The notes below the pieces were generated by a model. The model saw nothing but the letters and a program-made list of their open reading frames with translations. It was not told the origin of the DNA and did not search any database. The position numbers were made by a program, and so were the translations under genes. Positions 2,551 to 38,427 of a stretch of 64,000 nucleotides of DNA are shown piece by piece. Each line of letters begins with the position of its first letter. Within the stretch, counting starts at the first letter, position 1. The stretch is from a phage: the sequence record PZ386980.1; one strand, given 5' to 3'.

Positions 2551-3083
2551 TGAAATTTTTGTTTTGTTTTAAAATTATTTAATCTTTCTTTATTATCTTT
2601 CCTATTTTTTGCTACTGAAAAATATTTTAATGCCCTTTCTCTAGCAGCATTTCTATTTTGCGGATTTGAATAATACTGTTGAAGCCTTTTTGATATTGTG
2701 TCACTTACATCTTGTTTTATAAAACTATATTCAGCAGCTATTAAATCAACTTCGGCTAAAGATAAATTTTTATATGTTTTTCCTGACATCATTCTATTTA
2801 AAGCATTTAGCATTTTTCCATTTTTACCTTTTGCTAATAAGAAGTGTGCTTTAAAATGATTAAAATGACTTAAATTAACTAAATTCCATGTAGATTTTAA
2901 ATATTCAGGAAATATTGATTTAGGAAGCACGTGGTGTGCTTCCGTTTTACCTGGAGTTTTAACAGTTGAATTCACAGAAATAAAATTAATGTAAGACTTG
3001 GCGTCTTCTTCACTCAACGCTAATTTTTCAACTAATTCCTTTATTAAAAATTCATCATTAATGTCAAGTTTAAAATTCTTCAC
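2457..3083 (-). CDS. Freestanding HNH homing endonuclease (mob-like), N-terminal catalytic portion
   Basis: 208 aa; motif EAHHVLPKS...NLVNLSHFNHFKAH fits HNH (HH...N...N...H); GTG start overlapping TGA stop of the upstream ORF; basic C-terminal half. Confidence 0.6.
   Translation of the reverse strand: MKNFKLDINDEFLIKELVEKLALSEEDAKSYINFISVNSTVKTPGKTEAHHVLPKSIFPEYLKSTWNLVNLSHFNHFKAHFLLAKGKNGKMLNALNRMMSGKTYKNLSLAEVDLIAAEYSFIKQDVSDTISKRLQQYYSNPQNRNAARERALKYFSVAKNRKDNKERLNNFKTKQKFQWLQGNGLITKKIKLNTKRLFVLLYQNLNIK
3048..3067. repeat. Direct repeat copy A (aaattcatcattaatgtcaa) at the 5' end of the HNH ORF
   Basis: 20-nt perfect match to 3251..3270, similarity extends about 16 nt further; gives both ORFs a shared DINDEF N-terminal peptide. 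Confidence 0.8.
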
Positions 3084-3343
3084 AAAAGATTCCTTTTAAT
3101 GTATCTTTTAGACCATTCTATCATATCATCATAATCTAAAAAGTATTCATCAAATTCAGCCATGCAAACAACGCCTTGTGCTGTTTTTGATGTAATATAA
3201 ATTATTCCAACATATCTAGAATCTTCTTCGGTATAATCAATATTTGCTATAAATTCATCATTAATGTCAAATGTCGAAAACTTCACAGTATGCATCCTTA
3301 ATACAAGATACAGCCATATCTCGTAATGATTTAGGTGTGTCAT
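3080..3343 (-). CDS. Hypothetical protein (start uncertain; internal ATG at 3295)
   Basis: ORF track; contains FSTFDINDEF peptide duplicated at the start of the HNH ORF; overlaps neighbours. Confidence 0.4.
   Translation of the reverse strand: MTHLNHYEIWLYLVLRMHTVKFSTFDINDEFIANIDYTEEDSRYVGIIYITSKTAQGVVCMAEFDEYFLDYDDMIEWSKRYIKRNLL
3251..3270. repeat. Direct repeat copy B (aaattcatcattaatgtcaa)
   Basis: Perfect 20-nt match to 3048..3067 on the same strand. Confidence 0.8.
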
Positions 3344-3530
3344 TATCTAAAATGTTGAAGTTAAAAGATACAGCCCAGTCAGTGCAGACCGTAACCTTTT
3401 TAATACAATTATCTTCAACCTCTAACGGTTCAAACCAATATTCAATAATTTCTTTATGCCCAATATCATCTTTTACTTCGCATTCAAAATGCTGACTCAT
3501 CATAACATTTTTAAATTCATCAAAAGTCAT
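3267..3530 (-). CDS. Hypothetical small acidic protein
   Basis: ORF track; ATGA-type overlap with gene 47 stop. Confidence 0.45.
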   Translation of the reverse strand: MTFDEFKNVMMSQHFECEVKDDIGHKEIIEYWFEPLEVEDNCIKKVTVCTDWAVSFNFNILDNDTPKSLRDMAVSCIKDAYCEVFDI

Positions 3531-4546
3531 TGTGTTGCCTCTACATATAACTGATTTGCATATTGAATAAGTGCTTCGCGGTCAGAATCAGTGATGTCTG
3601 GAATTGCATTAATGTATTCTTCCATCAACGTCTGAAGAGATTGAACTTCAACTTCTTCGCTTTCATCTGACTCGACAGAGTTATCAATTTTTGACACAAC
3701 TCGTAATGAATGCACAACTTTTTCTAGTTCAGATTCGAACTTCGTCAGATTTTTGTCTACCTCAGTTACTATAACACGTACTGATAGATTTGTAAAATCT
3801 TTATAGTCAATTTTTCCTTTAAATGGATAATGAATTCTACGATGCCAGGTAGTATTGTTTGGAATAAATTCCATTCGTTCTGTTTCTGTATCAAACATCC
3901 AGAACCCGCGAGGGTCATTCTCGTCACCTGCAGTTAGTGTCCATGGTGTCCCAATATATCTGACGTTTGCAGCCTCAGAAATAGTATGGAAGTGACCAGA
4001 CCACACTTCTTTATAAGTCTTAAGGAAATCAGGTTCAAGACCGTGAGATTTCATTCCTTTATAAAAATAAAATCCATTCAGTTCCCAGTGACCAACACAA
4101 AAAGAAGCAGATGAAGTTTTTATGTGCTCGAGAATTTCACCAGTATTTTCTTCACACATCCAAGGAATTAAATCAATTAAACATCCGTCAAAATCTACTG
4201 TAGTAGGCTTATCATATACTTTAACATTAGGATATTTAGCCAAAAGCTCAGTAGAGGCATTTGGAGTTAAAGTATTTTTAAAGTGCATATCATGGTTTCC
4301 TACAACAGTATGTAGGGTAATACCAGCATCATCAAGCATTTGAACTATTTCACGAGCGAACTCCATAGTTTTATGCGTGATTGCTTTTCGCACATCAAAA
4401 ATATCGCCATATTGAATCCAGGTAGTAATTCCATTTTTCTTAGAATATTCTATTGCTTGTTTAATTCCATCCAACTGAATGGATTGAACCCACTCGTCAT
4501 CGGCTTTAACGCCTAAATGCCAATCACCTAAATTTAAAATTTTCAT
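3527..4546 (-). CDS. 47: Recombination endonuclease subunit gp47 (Mre11-like metallophosphatase)
   Basis: 339 aa; phosphoesterase motifs GDWHLG, YGDIFD, GNHDMH; matches recalled T4 gp47 length and N-terminus. Confidence 0.92.
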   Translation of the reverse strand: MKILNLGDWHLGVKADDEWVQSIQLDGIKQAIEYSKKNGITTWIQYGDIFDVRKAITHKTMEFAREIVQMLDDAGITLHTVVGNHDMHFKNTLTPNASTELLAKYPNVKVYDKPTTVDFDGCLIDLIPWMCEENTGEILEHIKTSSASFCVGHWELNGFYFYKGMKSHGLEPDFLKTYKEVWSGHFHTISEAANVRYIGTPWTLTAGDENDPRGFWMFDTETERMEFIPNNTTWHRRIHYPFKGKIDYKDFTNLSVRVIVTEVDKNLTKFESELEKVVHSLRVVSKIDNSVESDESEEVEVQSLQTLMEEYINAIPDITDSDREALIQYANQLYVEATQ

Positions 4547-32375: not shown

Positions 32376-32849
32376 TTATTTGAACGATTTAACGTACTGA
32401 ATAGAACCCTTACTATTCACAAAGGCAATTTTACCATTTTTATTATACATGGTAGCAGTACGCTGATAACCATAGGTTTGTTTACCAGATTGATAACCAA
32501 CTAATGCAAAATTATCTTCACCCATTTTATTCTGTTTAGCGCGAATGCGTTCATGACCATGTGCCATAAGAACCTTAGCATCACCAGTTGCAATGGATCG
32601 ACGAGTTTTTTCATCTTCAACTGCATTAACAAAGTCGTCAAATGAATCAAATTTAGCATGAGATTTATTATACAATTTTCCATCTACTGCATAATTATAT
32701 CCCTGTACATCCATCTCAACTTCTGTACCATCATCCAATACAGCAGTAATTTTTTGACCTTTTTTAAATTTCAAAAGATCAGTAAAAGATTCAGCAATAA
32801 TTTGAGAATTAATAGCTGCTTCAGTGATAAATTCTTGATATGTTTTCAT
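32376..32849 (-). CDS. Internal (head-packaged) protein with capsid-targeting sequence
   Basis: 157 aa; N-terminus MKTYQEFITEA matches the T4 internal-protein targeting pattern; lies upstream of denV rather than between denV and e. Confidence 0.7.
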   Translation of the reverse strand: MKTYQEFITEAAINSQIIAESFTDLLKFKKGQKITAVLDDGTEVEMDVQGYNYAVDGKLYNKSHAKFDSFDDFVNAVEDEKTRRSIATGDAKVLMAHGHERIRAKQNKMGEDNFALVGYQSGKQTYGYQRTATMYNKNGKIAFVNSKGSIQYVKSFK

Positions 32850-33297: not shown

Positions 33298-34303
<1,006 letters not shown>

Positions 34304-34322
<19 letters not shown>

Positions 34323-34792
34323 TCAGTGATAAAGTTATTTAAATTTTGAGTATATTTCTTTTCATCAAAAATCTTTTGTTGTCTGCGTAGCCGCCATGGC
34401 ATTTCAATGAACGTGTACCATATCCCAGATAATATTGCTGCAGTAAAAATATTAACAAGTATGGTTAAAAGAATCCAATCTCCTATTCTGTCCATTGGAT
34501 TTTTTATAAAAAAGTAAAATACGAATGATGTCACAGGAAGACTAATAATATACCACAGAATCATAATTTTATCTGTGAACCAATCAGCGTTCGTTAACTT
34601 AGCGCGACCATTATGAATACACACGAATTTATCATCTGTTATAATAGATGGCTTAGCTGCTTGATATCCCATTCTAAACTCCCTAATCAACAAATTTTTC
34701 ATATCTTCGGAACAACCATTCCAGTCAACTCTATCAACTGAAATGCCATCATCCCCATCATCTAAATCATACCAGCGAGTTTTTAAAATCAT
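34304..34792 (-). CDS. Membrane protein, CRK-tail family member
   Basis: 162 aa; two hydrophobic helices; ends FITECRKLK. Confidence 0.55.
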
Positions 34793-35163
34793 TTAATTTT
34801 CCTACAATCACTCACAAACTCTTCCATTGATTCTTTTTCAATATAAGACATGTAGCTATTATATTCCTTTAATTGTATTTTGTAATCTTTTTTTCTTTGC
34901 CAATTTATTTTAAAATTATCATAATGAAAATATAACATGGTACCAAAGAATGAAAATAATGAAATCGCTATAGTATAATGAAGTTCACTCCAAACTTCTA
35001 TTATATCTATTATACCGCTGACGTTACTACGGATGTTTAAAATAAGACAGTCAATTAACAATCCAAAAAGACTACCCGCAAGAGCTGCAGCCAACGCTAC
35101 AGCAAAAATTAAAAATGACTCAGGAAGAGAATATTTGACTTTATTTAGTTTTGGCTTTTGCAT
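34789..35163 (-). CDS. Membrane protein, CRK-tail family member
   Basis: 124 aa; two hydrophobic helices; ends FVSDCRKIK. Confidence 0.55.
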   Translation of the reverse strand: MQKPKLNKVKYSLPESFLIFAVALAAALAGSLFGLLIDCLILNIRSNVSGIIDIIEVWSELHYTIAISLFSFFGTMLYFHYDNFKINWQRKKDYKIQLKEYNSYMSYIEKESMEEFVSDCRKIK

Positions 35164-35558
35164 CGCGATTCCTTAACAAATTTCATAATTTCATCAAATT
35201 CATGCGCAGCAAGTTTAAGCTGATGTTCCTTTTTAATCTTTTTACACTGAGCTTTCCAATCACGTACACGTTTACGATAGTGTCTTCCTTGATACCAATA
35301 TCCTATCCAATTTATAGGTACTAATAAAAGCGGAACTACCAACGGAAGAATTAGTGTTGCTCCAAATATTGCACCAGATTCAATATCAGTCATAACGTCT
35401 ATAACCATTCCAGCAATCACCAGAATCACAAATGATACAACTACCACAGGACCTATTAACACATCAGTAGAAATTATCTGACGCTTTAATTCATACTTCA
35501 ACGGTTTACTTGGAAGGTATAGTGATGGTTTTGACATATTCTCTACATTCCTTAACAA
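35145..35558 (-). CDS. Membrane protein, CRK-tail family member
   Basis: 137 aa; two hydrophobic helices; ends KFVKESRCKSQN. Confidence 0.55.
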   Translation of the reverse strand: MLRNVENMSKPSLYLPSKPLKYELKRQIISTDVLIGPVVVVSFVILVIAGMVIDVMTDIESGAIFGATLILPLVVPLLLVPINWIGYWYQGRHYRKRVRDWKAQCKKIKKEHQLKLAAHEFDEIMKFVKESRCKSQN

Positions 35559-36114
35559 ATTTTTCTAATAATAAATCGCTTTCAAAATTGGGATTTTCTA
35601 CGAATTTATCAAAAAGATCATCGACAATAGTTAAGATATTCTTTTTACTAAGAATACGTTTATTTTCATATTTTGTTTCAGAGTCAACTATAAGAGTAAA
35701 GAAATATTTCTTGCCCTGAAATTTTACAGTAGTATCAATATAGAATAAATTTGACTTTTGTAAATTACGTTTAAACCATGCATCACTTAAACTATAAACG
35801 CCAAGATAATCATAATCGTCGTTTAAATAACAGACCGTCCATTCAGGAGAAACAAAATCAGTAAATTCAACGTCAAAATCGCATGTTAATAAATGAATTG
35901 ATTCAATACTGTTAATAAGTATTCCAGGACGTATTAAAGACTTTTTACCTCTAAAAAATCTTCCAGAAAGACTTTCAACAGTTTCATATGAAGAACCCCA
36001 ATAATAATTACGTCCTTCTGCCATACGTTTAAGAGCATTTAATAATTGGTCTGGAACATCAACCTGTCTTTGGAACTCTTCAAACATTGAATTGAAATCA
36101 CTTTGCATTTTCAT
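35506..36114 (-). CDS. Hypothetical soluble protein with related C-terminal motif
   Basis: 202 aa; C-terminal region EKFVKECREYVK. Confidence 0.5.
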   Translation of the reverse strand: MKMQSDFNSMFEEFQRQVDVPDQLLNALKRMAEGRNYYWGSSYETVESLSGRFFRGKKSLIRPGILINSIESIHLLTCDFDVEFTDFVSPEWTVCYLNDDYDYLGVYSLSDAWFKRNLQKSNLFYIDTTVKFQGKKYFFTLIVDSETKYENKRILSKKNILTIVDDLFDKFVENPNFESDLLLEKFVKECREYVKTITIPSK

Positions 36115-36134: not shown

Positions 36135-36150
36135 AGGGGCCGAAGCCCCT
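36135..36150 (-). terminator. Stem-loop GGGGC-UUCG-GCCCC after PspA-like gene
   Basis: aggggccgaagcccct directly after stop; no clear U-run. Confidence 0.4.
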
Positions 36151-36155
36151 TATCA

Positions 36156-36749
36156 TTATTTCAGAGAATTAATATATTCCTGAACATCGGCAGAGGTAGT
36201 TTCAACCCCAGAAATATTACCATTAAAGGTTTCAACTCGAGCAAGAGTATCTTCAATATCAACCTTAGTCAGTGCTGCAATTTCAACTACATCATCAGCA
36301 GTACTAATTCCAAGGGCATTCGCGGCGCGAGTTTCACGGATATATTCCAATTTAACTGCAAGTTCTTGGCGAGCATCATCTAACTCAACTACTTTCTTGG
36401 CAATTTCAATTCGCATTTCAGCATAACCATCAGCTTTAGTAGTCAACTGCTCAGCTGTTCGACGATATAGTAAACCAAGTTTAGCATGCATTGTTACATC
36501 TTGACCTTCCGAAAGGAGCTTGCGAATTTCACGCTCTTTTGATTCGGCCTGCTTATTCTTTTCGACAATAAGTTCACGAATACGCTTTTCTTCATTAATA
36601 GATTTAACAGAAGCAGTTTTTAGATCTTTAATTTTATCAAGCAATTTTGCTGCTGCGGCAGTATACTGCTCTTCAACAGATAGATTTTTAGCCATAGCAG
36701 AACCAAGTTTAGTGCGAATAAACTCAACAATTTTCTTCAGTGTGTTCAT
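36156..36749 (-). CDS. PspA/IM30-like coiled-coil protein (tentative)
   Basis: 197 aa, almost entirely heptad-like charged helix; pattern resembles phage-shock protein A; by eye only. Confidence 0.4.
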
Positions 36750-36792
36750 AGTATTTCCTTAGGTTGATTAGAAATTAAAATCTGCAGAAGAA

Positions 36793-37326
36793 TTATATCA
36801 TGCTACTTAAGAGATGTAAACTATTTTTAATTTTACAAATTCGTTCAGCTTCTTCAACAGCGGCAGTGATAATGCTTTTAGCTATAGGAGTACTAATATT
36901 AGTAGCTTTTACACTTAACACGATTTCTTTATCTTTACCAGGCCAACCCCACGATTTTTCACCATGAGTGCCTTTAATTACAGCAGACACCTCAAGTGAG
37001 CATCCATTATCGCATGTTTTTACATTAACAACCCAAGTGTCACTTTTCTCAACCGGTTTATCCCAGTAAATATTAAGAATACGTGGGACATCAAATTTAG
37101 CAGGGCAAATCTTAACCGTAAGACCTTCGCTTTCTAGCCAATTAATAAGAGGGCGTTCATACATGCGGCGATGTGGGCTTTGAACTCGACAAGCTTTGTA
37201 CCCATTGCTTGCGGCTTCACTAAGCTCTTCTAATACATGCTTTTGCATTATTGATAAGATACCATCAAAAGATTTTTCGGAAGTTTCATTCAGTTCGGTA
37301 TAAAGAGACATAACAGTTTTCCTCAA
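36793..37326 (-). CDS. Hypothetical protein
   Basis: ORF track (177 aa). Confidence 0.5.
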   Translation of the reverse strand: MRKTVMSLYTELNETSEKSFDGILSIMQKHVLEELSEAASNGYKACRVQSPHRRMYERPLINWLESEGLTVKICPAKFDVPRILNIYWDKPVEKSDTWVVNVKTCDNGCSLEVSAVIKGTHGEKSWGWPGKDKEIVLSVKATNISTPIAKSIITAAVEEAERICKIKNSLHLLSSMI

Positions 37327-37833: not shown

Positions 37834-37868
37834 TACCAAAAAGCCCCAACCTTTCGGCTAGGGCTAAG
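37834..37868. repeat. 35-nt direct repeat, copy 1 (hairpin-forming) just 3' of ip gene
   Basis: taccaaaaagccccaacctttcggctagggctaag; 32/35 identical to 38393..38427. Confidence 0.75.
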
Positions 37869-37872
37869 AATG

Positions 37873-38346
37873 TTATTTGATTTGTTTAGCAGACCAAATG
37901 CGGTCTTTAATAATTTTTTGAATGTCTTCAACATACTCAAGAGAGTGAGCATGTGGGTTATCTTTGAAACTATAAGCACGAGCTAGTTTTTGGCCTTCAG
38001 TTTTGATTACTAAAAGCTCTTTAAGGATAGCTTCATATTTGGAGATAATTCCTTTAACAATATTTTTCTCTTGTGCGACTTTAGGATCTGCTTTAGGAGC
38101 AGGTTTACCCGAAGCCTTTGCAAAAGCAGCGCCAGTAGCAACTAAACTTTTCCAGGCCATACTAACTGCATTTCCCGTAAATCCTTCCGCTTTCATGTCG
38201 CGTGCGAACTGGAATCGCGATTCATCAGAAGCATCTTTGTAAGAATATTTACCCGCTGCAATGGCTGCTTTTGCGACAGCTTGAATTTCGGTGCTAGATG
38301 CTTCATTTAACACCGCTTCATTTAAAAATTGAGTATATGATTTCAT
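37873..38346 (-). CDS. Internal (head-packaged) protein with capsid-targeting sequence
   Basis: 157 aa; N-terminus MKSYTQFLNEA; Ala/Lys-rich; flanked by direct repeats; TATAAATA late promoter upstream. Confidence 0.7.
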   Translation of the reverse strand: MKSYTQFLNEAVLNEASSTEIQAVAKAAIAAGKYSYKDASDESRFQFARDMKAEGFTGNAVSMAWKSLVATGAAFAKASGKPAPKADPKVAQEKNIVKGIISKYEAILKELLVIKTEGQKLARAYSFKDNPHAHSLEYVEDIQKIIKDRIWSAKQIK

Positions 38347-38394: not shown

Positions 38395-38427
38395 CCAAAA
38401 AGCCCCAACCTTTCGGTCGGGGCTAAG
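38393..38427. repeat. 35-nt direct repeat, copy 2, 5' of ip gene
   Basis: taccaaaaagccccaacctttcggtcggggctaag. Confidence 0.75.

Follow-up and report, generated by a model that had tools for sequence, protein, structure and literature searches.

A conserved C-terminal motif on the e.2–e.5 proteins of T4-type phages and its linkage to e.6, a divergent homologue of PspA/IM30/Vipp1

Why should small membrane proteins and a soluble protein, encoded side by side in a phage genome, end in nearly the same short peptide? The question is raised by positions 34,304 to 36,114 of a 64,000-nucleotide (nt) stretch of phage DNA (sequence record PZ386980.1; the whole stretch is referred to here as the window). 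There, an original prediction had recognized three overlapping open reading frames (ORFs) for membrane proteins with a common cytoplasmic tail, preceded by a soluble ORF of 202 amino acids (aa) with a related sequence near its end. All four ORFs lie on the minus strand and match, over their full length, the annotated genes e.2, e.3, e.4 and e.5, whose position between e.6 and nudE/e is kept; where a comparison with e.2–e.8 of T4 had been proposed, the ORFs turn out to be e.2–e.5 themselves. Over the region tested, the Tequatrovirus phages RB51 and RB68 are 100% identical to the window in nucleotide sequence and T4 is about 91% identical; GenBank record L13089 of T4 names e.2 to e.5 msp7 to msp4. 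The four proteins match PHROG families 2203 (e.2), 2330 (e.3), 2604 (e.4) and 2607 (e.5) with E values of 1e-63 to 1e-108. These are four separate function-unknown families, in which neither a common tail nor a link to e.6 is recorded, and the literature searched contained no paper on the function of e.2–e.6. The genes themselves are known; the motif that unites them, the tail family and the PspA-like neighbour described below appear to be new.

Comparisons within the window and across phage genera show the motif to be real and evidently under selection for its peptide, not for a ribosome-binding site. All four proteins bear F-[IV]-x-[ED]-[CS]-R at or close to the C-terminus: FITECRKLK in e.2 (34307..34333, a segment that includes the Shine-Dalgarno sequence AGGAAA and the ATGA at which e.2 overlaps nudE), FVSDCRKIK in e.3 (34792..34818), FVKESRCKSQN in e.4 (35148..35180), with Ser at +4 where other genera have Ile or Val, and FVKECREYVK in e.5 (35530..35559), where the stop follows 7 residues further on and the e.4 ATG lies within the Tyr-Val codons. 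A six-frame translation of the 64-kb window has three matches to the pattern F[IV].[ED]CR, all of them in these tails, against an expectation of 0.10 and a maximum of one in 200 sequences simulated under a second-order Markov model fitted to the window. Relaxed to Cys or Ser, it occurs five times, four of them in these tails, with 0.39 expected. Among window ORFs of at least 50 aa, [FW][IV]..C[RK] within 15 residues of the end is found in e.2, e.3 and e.5 only. These counts uphold the similarity originally claimed for the tails, that of the 202-aa soluble ORF included.

The tail is conserved as protein far beyond the window. The family was defined by a C-terminal Φ-[EN]-x-[FW]-[IV]-x-x-[C/S/I/V/M]-[RK] no more than 17 residues from the stop, a definition that e.2, e.3, e.4 and e.5 all satisfy, e.4 in the relaxed form only (Ser at +4). 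Across at least 10 genera, the motif reads Φ-[EN]-x-F-[IV]-x-E-C-[RK], as an amphipathic helix. Mosigvirus and Dhakavirus proteins that are 30–50% identical to those of RB51 still end in FIKECRK, FITECRNLR, FIEECRK or FVKEIRCKSLNS at the stop codon, or in FIMECREYVK with further residues after it. In e.2, at about 32% overall identity, the tail and the N-terminal domain are the two most conserved blocks, and F154, I155, E157, C158 and R159 of the tail are invariant in the family alignment, so the protein-level conservation on which the earlier claim depended is evident in homologues. Counted from the Phe, positions outside the search pattern are also kept: of 59 tails, 52 have L, I, V, M or A at -3, 41 have E or N at -2 and 40 have E at +3. 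The hydrophobic moment of the tail helix is 0.38–0.52 at 100 degrees, compared with about 0.2 at 160 degrees, and the conserved hydrophobic positions -3, 0, +1 and +4 share one helix face.

The codons that spell the tail vary while the residues stay. In a survey of 66 distinct combinations of tail and codon string, Phe was encoded by TTT (53) or TTC (11), Cys about evenly by TGT (26) and TGC (24), and Arg by five kinds of codon: AGA (17), CGT (15), AGG (11), CGA (10) and CGC (5). How far the following ATG lies from the Phe codon also varies, over 11–46 nt. A fifth member in Mosigvirus (101 aa, ending FIKECRGK) uses other codons and stops ahead of the following gene's start, and adjacent overlapping genes at Mosigvirus and Dhakavirus loci are without such a tail. 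The condition named for discarding the motif, that it merely reflects overlap with the next gene's start, therefore fails on codon usage (five Arg codons, both Cys codons), on spacing and on the non-overlapping member.

The proteins that carry the tail are of at least two kinds. The sizes first given for e.2 (162 aa), e.3 (124 aa) and e.5 (202 aa) hold. The 137 aa given for e.4 do not, since that protein most probably starts not at a TTG but at the ATG at 35537 (130 aa, 35145..35537), as judged from the N-terminus MSKP[ST]LY.PSKP, which is conserved in Mosigvirus, and from database annotation, which uses the same start. Coordinates and sequence agree on the predicted overlaps, with 32 nt shared by e.5/e.4, 19 nt by e.4/e.3, and 4 nt (ATGA) each by e.3/e.2 and e.2/nudE. 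By hydropathy, e.2 (34304..34792) comprises an acidic cytoplasmic N-terminal domain (aa 1–75), a transmembrane (TM) hairpin with helices at aa 76–96 (nt 34505–34567) and 103–129 (nt 34406–34486), a basic juxtamembrane stretch and the tail. In e.3 (34789..35163), the N-terminus MQKPKL precedes a hairpin of helices at about aa 17–41 (nt 35041–35115) and aa 62–80 (nt 34924–34980) and a 44-aa cytoplasmic C-terminal region. In e.4, the N-terminus MSKPSLYLPSKP is followed by helices at aa 26–46 (nt 35400–35462) and 55–80 (nt 35298–35375) and by a 50-aa basic cytoplasmic C-terminal region.

Two hydrophobic helices in each of the three membrane ORFs, as predicted, agree with hydropathy: they are clear in e.2 and e.4 (Kyte-Doolittle 2.0–2.9), and e.3 scores lower in its second helix (1.37 across 19 residues, 1.83 across 15), which is nevertheless hydrophobic in all homologues. 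Lys and Arg are many on both flanks and few in the loop (0–1 in e.3 and e.4). This distribution indicates a topology with both termini inside for e.3 and e.4, and the e.2 charges are compatible with it; the predicted cytoplasmic location of the tails follows from it. The fourth protein, e.5 (35506..36114), is soluble and alpha/beta. Its AlphaFold2 model is of modest quality (predicted local distance difference test score, pLDDT, 63; predicted template modelling score, pTM, 0.65) and places the motif in a C-terminal helix (aa 181–196); a Foldseek search of that model against the Protein Data Bank (PDB) returned noise only.

Profile-profile comparisons suggest that the membrane proteins e.2–e.4 are in part paralogues. 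The e.3-like family of Dhakavirus aligns with e.3 (HHalign probability 98%) and, over its full length, with e.4 (91%). Alignment of e.3 with the fifth Mosigvirus member (82%) runs from the second membrane helix through the tail, and that with the C-terminal half of e.2 (84%) covers the tail only. To the other membrane members, e.2 is tied by its juxtamembrane region and tail only (84–91%). An N-terminal M-x-K-P-x-L is common to e.3 and e.4. Because e.5 is a different, soluble alpha/beta protein, the motif is shown to be carried by at least two unrelated scaffolds. The N-terminal domain of e.2 (aa 1–75) matched no known family; within it, W7, D11, D12, G16, I17, V22, D23, W24 and C27 are invariant across Tequatro-, Mosig- and Dhakavirus.

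What the tail-bearing genes have in common beyond the motif is their position. Proper e.3, e.4 and e.5 are limited to Tequatrovirus and Mosigvirus, and e.2 reaches Dhakavirus by tblastn; a homologue search with e.3 returned relatives of at least 69% identity only. Wider tail-bearing members were found only when e.6 was used as an anchor. This gene (36156..36749, minus strand, 197 aa) is widespread, with 1,107 phage records, and every tail-bearing array has it as its conserved neighbour on the upstream side. Downstream of it, on membrane and soluble proteins, tails occur in Kanagawa-, Jiaoda-, Karam-, Moon-, Tulane- and Ishigurovirus, among them FIKYCRERVQK, FVKEVRRK, WIRSCRK, FIDDCRRARK, FISKCRTKR, FVDYCRRTAPKRE and FIKKCRGMVK.

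In 40 IMG/VR loci centred on e.6, many of them related so that the counts are not independent, [FW][IV]..C[RK] near the ORF end was found in none of 464 same-strand ORFs upstream of e.6, compared with 116 of 529 downstream. The first ORF downstream bears the tail in 36 of the 40 loci; two of the other four have a frameshifted e.5 and two have F[IV]xYC[IV] variants. Iterative searching joins nearly all first-downstream proteins to e.5, and e.6 and e.5 therefore form a conserved pair that is followed by a variable array. The window has the same layout, with e.2–e.5 downstream of e.6 on the same strand. Together, these loci show the tail to be restricted to genes directly downstream of e.6. Most genomes have 3–6 tail-bearing proteins; Tulanevirus has one within the loci read, directly after e.6.

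The neighbour e.6 is itself, on the strength of a structural model and profile comparisons, a divergent homologue of PspA/IM30/Vipp1 in the ESCRT-III superfamily. Its AlphaFold2 model (pLDDT 75) has an N-terminal helix, a long hairpin (25–80, 86–145) and more helices, and the top nine matches of that model in a Foldseek search of the PDB are all Vipp1 or PspA. A broadened profile of the e.6 family (A5) matched Vipp1 in the PDB with E = 1.8e-4 in a collinear alignment (1–146 on 1–147), and about eight more Vipp1/PspA entries near 1e-3; Escherichia coli PspA followed at 0.15. A narrower profile (A3) gave E of about 1–3, hhalign against a single E. coli PspA sequence gave no match, and RB51 e.6 itself had no Pfam match at E <= 1. 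The Pfam family PspA_IM30 (PF04012) was matched by four of 31 full-length representatives of the e.6 family (best 8.9e-10), with P0125, at 35.1 bits, the sole representative above the gathering score of 33.9. The link from RB51 e.6 to PF04012 is thus transitive, because only those four representatives match and e.6 itself does not. Like PspA/IM30/Vipp1, e.6 has about 200 aa and, in its model, an N-terminal amphipathic helix and a long alpha1-alpha2/3 hairpin; unlike them, RB51 e.6 lies below all Pfam thresholds and its family is compact, with 45 representatives among 1.84 billion proteins in an exhaustive search with hidden Markov models. A phage homologue of PspA is not described in the literature searched.

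Several smaller observations concern e.6. Public records list it as 'hypothetical' or as a 'host specificity protein'. P0125, the family member most like PspA and the one representative whose contig was read, comes from a food metagenome: it lies on a T4-like phage contig of 156 kb (GC 50%; L071 5001–7293, plus strand) and is followed by three paralogous proteins, two with an N-terminal membrane helix. Their ends (..ILANARERR.., ..IVHRARLEL.., ..FITRQRMMR..) are possibly a distant version of the tail, a similarity seen by eye. The idea that the tail mimics the conserved C-terminus of e.6 (..EYINSLK), and with it a polymerisation helix, was suggested by eye and rejected: with a position-specific scoring matrix built from 105 tails, e.6 C-termini scored no better than other ORFs (median -16.7 versus -19.5 for the null), and the best match was never C-terminal.

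How, then, might a peptide common to such different proteins work? A common interaction partner, as originally proposed, is the most economical reading, because a conserved cytoplasmic tail sits on unrelated scaffolds; it is reasonable but unproven. On this reading, e.2, e.3 and e.4 would be inner-membrane hairpins with both termini in the cytoplasm and, with soluble e.5, accessory early proteins of T4-type phages. The tail helix would serve as a docking peptide that gathers every family member on one cytoplasmic partner, for which e.6 is the likeliest candidate. The membrane members would anchor, recruit or activate e.6 at the inner membrane, e.5 might be a soluble regulator or a competitor for the same site, and the module would protect the integrity of the host inner membrane, or remodel it, at an early stage of infection. 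The core of this proposal, in which the tail is a helix that docks all members on one cytoplasmic partner, most likely e.6, with anchoring or recruitment by the membrane members and with the tail DNA as a crossover point, has in our estimate about an even chance of being correct. That the tail docks on e.6 in particular we infer from synteny only; single-tail Tulanevirus genomes keep that one protein paired with e.6.

Several findings weigh against docking on e.6. Gene order alone links the tail with e.6, and T4-type phages have such strong synteny that shared ancestry could account for the adjacency. In Pseudotevenvirus and Pectobacterium phage POP12, the e.6 homologue is about 32% identical and has no recognisable tail-bearing neighbour. 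Models of PspB, PspC and LiaI/LiaF-TM in Pfam and NCBIfam gave no match to e.2–e.4 at E <= 1. In the e.4 lineage, Ser, Ile, Val or Met stands in place of the tail Cys, and any Cys-specific chemistry is therefore not universal. In T4 (L009 1680–1988, minus strand), e.2 is frameshifted to 102 aa and its tail is in another frame. Finally, knock-down of T4 e.2–e.8 by CRISPR interference had no fitness effect (PMC11879866 supplement), and the module is therefore accessory under laboratory conditions. The Cys replacements, with the lack of any sulfurtransferase domain, also led to the rejection of Cys chemistry (metal binding, disulfide formation or sulfur transfer) as the role of the tail.

The arrangement has cellular parallels. 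In envelope-stress modules, small inner-membrane proteins encoded on the same transcript typically recruit members of the PspA family to the membrane through their cytoplasmic parts, as PspB/PspC do PspA in E. coli and LiaI does LiaH in Bacillus subtilis (PMC7619361, PMC11237479). The phage locus likewise has a PspA-like protein, e.6, ahead of small membrane proteins, whose C-terminal helices are cytoplasmic; small size, membrane hairpin, cytoplasmic tail and adjacency to e.6 are all present in e.2–e.4. Unlike those systems, this one is phage-encoded and has several paralogous anchors as well as soluble members with one common peptide motif. It also differs from Psp and Lia modules in that a PspF-type or LiaRS-type regulator is absent and the interaction with e.6 is a presumed one. 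The analogy of e.2–e.4 to LiaI or PspB/C is one of function only, not of membership.

For the tail itself, the nearest precedents are terminal docking motifs. The MIM helices of ESCRT-III proteins bind MIT domains, and the XB peptide of SspB binds ClpX. The phage tail is like these in being an amphipathic helix of 9–12 residues at the end of otherwise unrelated proteins, with hydrophobic residues at i, i+3, i+4 and i+7; its sequence is another one, and the resemblance is of principle only.

PspA-family proteins are host defences against membrane damage, including damage by phage proteins. A broader proposal, which we hold only tentatively and consider somewhat doubtful, is that T4-type phages carry a Psp-like membrane-maintenance module of their own, in which e.6 and an expandable set of adaptors, e.2–e.5, joined by one C-terminal helix, would reseal or remodel the inner membrane after injection or under superinfection. 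If true, this module would open a molecular route to the classical 'sealing' of T-even-infected cells and to the resistance of such cells to lysis from without. A phage version of PspA that brings membrane adaptors of its own would be a new viral way to manage the host envelope, and the module would offer a compact, genetically tractable system for recruitment of ESCRT-III-like polymers to membranes. The motif and the PspA/Vipp1-type link turn e.2–e.6, which belong to the many conserved function-unknown genes of T4 and are listed in databases as five unrelated families, into a testable module.

Among the alternatives, the one that survives best, unlikely as we consider it, is that a hetero-oligomeric membrane complex is built through the tails, which would bind one another or e.5, with e.6 as a mere neighbour. 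The several tail-bearing proteins of most genomes speak for such a complex, as does the constancy of the e.5 family, its most constant member, with the motif in a terminal helix modelled with moderate confidence; amphipathic helices of this kind also often bundle. The single tail-bearing protein in the Tulanevirus loci means, however, that hetero-bundling is not universal, and homo-oligomerisation would have to be considered there.

Superinfection exclusion and lysis timing, with the tail touching the relevant machinery, had been suggested as functions at the outset, together with envelope signalling, which comes closest of the three. Small early inner-membrane proteins encoded next to the lysozyme gene e would suit either role, and a PspA-like partner is compatible with protection of the membrane against attack by a secondary phage. 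The T4 proteins Imm, Sp and RI are small early inner-membrane proteins that are dispensable in the laboratory, and e.2–e.4 resemble them in all these respects; they differ in having no homology to them and in bearing a tail that no other ORF of the 64-kb window has. Searches of Pfam, PHROG and PADLOC matched e.2–e.5 to no Imm, Sp, holin, defence or anti-defence family, and similarity to known exclusion, holin or antiholin families is lacking. The knock-down result also tells against these functions, although that assay would not reveal exclusion. We regard them as quite improbable.

A similarly low probability attaches to the tail as a targeting or turnover tag for a protease or sorting factor (ClpXP, FtsH, Lon or the T4 prohead protease) that would impose a common lifetime or location. 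The motif lies exposed at the C-terminus with basic residues after it, and its F-I-x-E is reminiscent of MKTYQEFI[AT]E, the sequence for capsid targeting and cleavage in internal proteins encoded nearby, such as Ip4 (32376–32849). The T4 prohead protease cleaves with [L/I]-x-E specificity. A Glu-specific protease is a poor fit, however, to a position at which Tequatrovirus e.3 has Asp and other genera have Q, N, Y, K, L or G. With Glu conserved in three genera only, the prohead-protease resemblance was demoted to this low rank. In addition, the e.5 motif is internal by 7–17 residues, and e.2–e.4 are early membrane proteins, not head components.

The near-identical tail DNA is also a crossover site at which whole genes are gained, lost or fused in frame. 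Phages of the RB32/T2 type lack e.2 because of a crossover inside the approximately 22 nt common to the e.3 and e.2 tails, and in RB32 (L007 about 1500–1600), a hybrid tail, FVSDCR-KLK, is fused directly to nudE. In UFV10 (L008 1501–1821, minus strand), e.4 and e.2 are fused in frame into a 106-aa chimera (e.4::e.2) with a single hairpin and a single tail. The tail illustrates how one short repeated coding sequence could combine a role in protein interaction with that of a crossover site at which genes are gained and lost in frame. RB32 e.3 (L007 1571–1867, minus strand) is, in addition, truncated by a change in an A-run (11 A versus 7 A), which could be a sequencing error.

Such exchanges invite the reading of the tail as a relic of tandem duplication, kept as a recombination linker that preserves frame and coupling, with a peptide of no specific function. 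The RB32 deletion of e.2 falls exactly inside the shared tail DNA, a stretch of 16 identical nucleotides is common to e.5 and e.4 and one of about 20 to e.2 and e.3, and the copy number of the array varies among phages. Against this, nucleotides diverge freely between genera while amino acids stay, with five Arg codons and both Cys and Phe codons in use; the flanking residues at -3, -2 and +3 are conserved and the tail is among the best conserved parts of e.2; and Mosigvirus keeps the motif on non-adjacent genes with eight unrelated genes between them. The linker is accordingly improbable as the main account of the tail. The weakest alternative, that the similarity is a nucleotide artefact of translational coupling (a Shine-Dalgarno sequence plus the next start), can point to AGGA or AAGGAA 5–11 nt ahead of the next ATG in every window tail, but the Shine-Dalgarno sequence falls on differing motif positions (K-E in e.4/e.5, R-K in e.2/e.3, E-E in Dhakavirus), Arg is often CGN, other overlapping junctions at the same loci are without the motif, and codon diversity, variable spacing and the non-overlapping member effectively refute it, which leaves it a very slight chance indeed.

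The layout of the locus bears on when these genes are expressed. Upstream of e.5–e.2 lie e.8, an RB69-like ORF and e.6, and downstream lie nudE, the lysozyme gene e and denV. A sigma-70-type promoter-like site of the T4 early class at 36792..36820 (minus strand), with 11 of 12 consensus positions, stands upstream of e.6; -35 and -10 signals are annotated at its position in L13089. This site probably drives e.6, e.5, e.4, e.3, e.2 and nudE, the last of which (33867..34307, minus strand) encodes a Nudix hydrolase, is the last translationally coupled gene of the chain and stands outside the tail family. Between e.6 and e.5, a GC-rich hairpin with a UUCG loop (36135..36150, minus strand) more probably serves stability or attenuation than strong termination, because the coding strand is without a T-run. 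The early promoter-like site and this hairpin are consistent with a single early transcript.

Database labels on these genes call for some caution. Searches of Pfam, NCBIfam and PADLOC with e.2–e.5 gave no significant match; among the significant PHROG matches, that of e.2 is described as 'membrane protein' and the others as 'unknown function'. An O-acetyltransferase identity for e.2, from a marginal match to phrog_3333 (E 0.0072), was disregarded. The 'sulfurtransferase' label of e.3 and e.4 in several GenBank/PGAP records was rejected, these being two-helix membrane proteins with no rhodanese or sulfurtransferase domain in Pfam or NCBIfam. For e.5, records give 'phosphoserine phosphatase' and, in T6, 'site-specific RNA endonuclease', neither of which is backed by domain searches. 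Its homologues P0095–P0108 are tagged with Pfam PF26876.1, so a recent e.5 family apparently exists.

In Dhaka-, Mosig-, Kanagawa-, Karam- and Moonvirus, a second tandem array, absent from the RB51 window, is found between the e.3-like gene and e.2. It consists of 3–5 small soluble ORFs of 65–100 aa, all of which end, at the stop codon, in W-[VFYIL]-[STPQ]-S-S-x-x-C, for example GAWVSSSQMC, GGWVSSSSEC, GFWFTSSMSC and KIWYPSSC. Sites include L013, L015 and L018 (about 3030–4310, plus strand) and L006 (6249–6554, minus strand), and also L022, L024 and L027.

Elsewhere in the window, two near-identical terminator-like hairpins on the minus strand (37842–37865 and 38401–38424; AGCCC..GAAAGGTTGGGGCT followed by TTTTTGGTAT) bracket an ORF at 37873–38346. 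Its product of 157 aa starts with MKSYTQFLNEA, which is capsid-targeting-like; Ip4 starts with MKTYQEFITEA. The RB51 record describes this ORF as 'flanked by 34 bp imperfect direct repeat', and it looks like a mobile internal-protein cassette.

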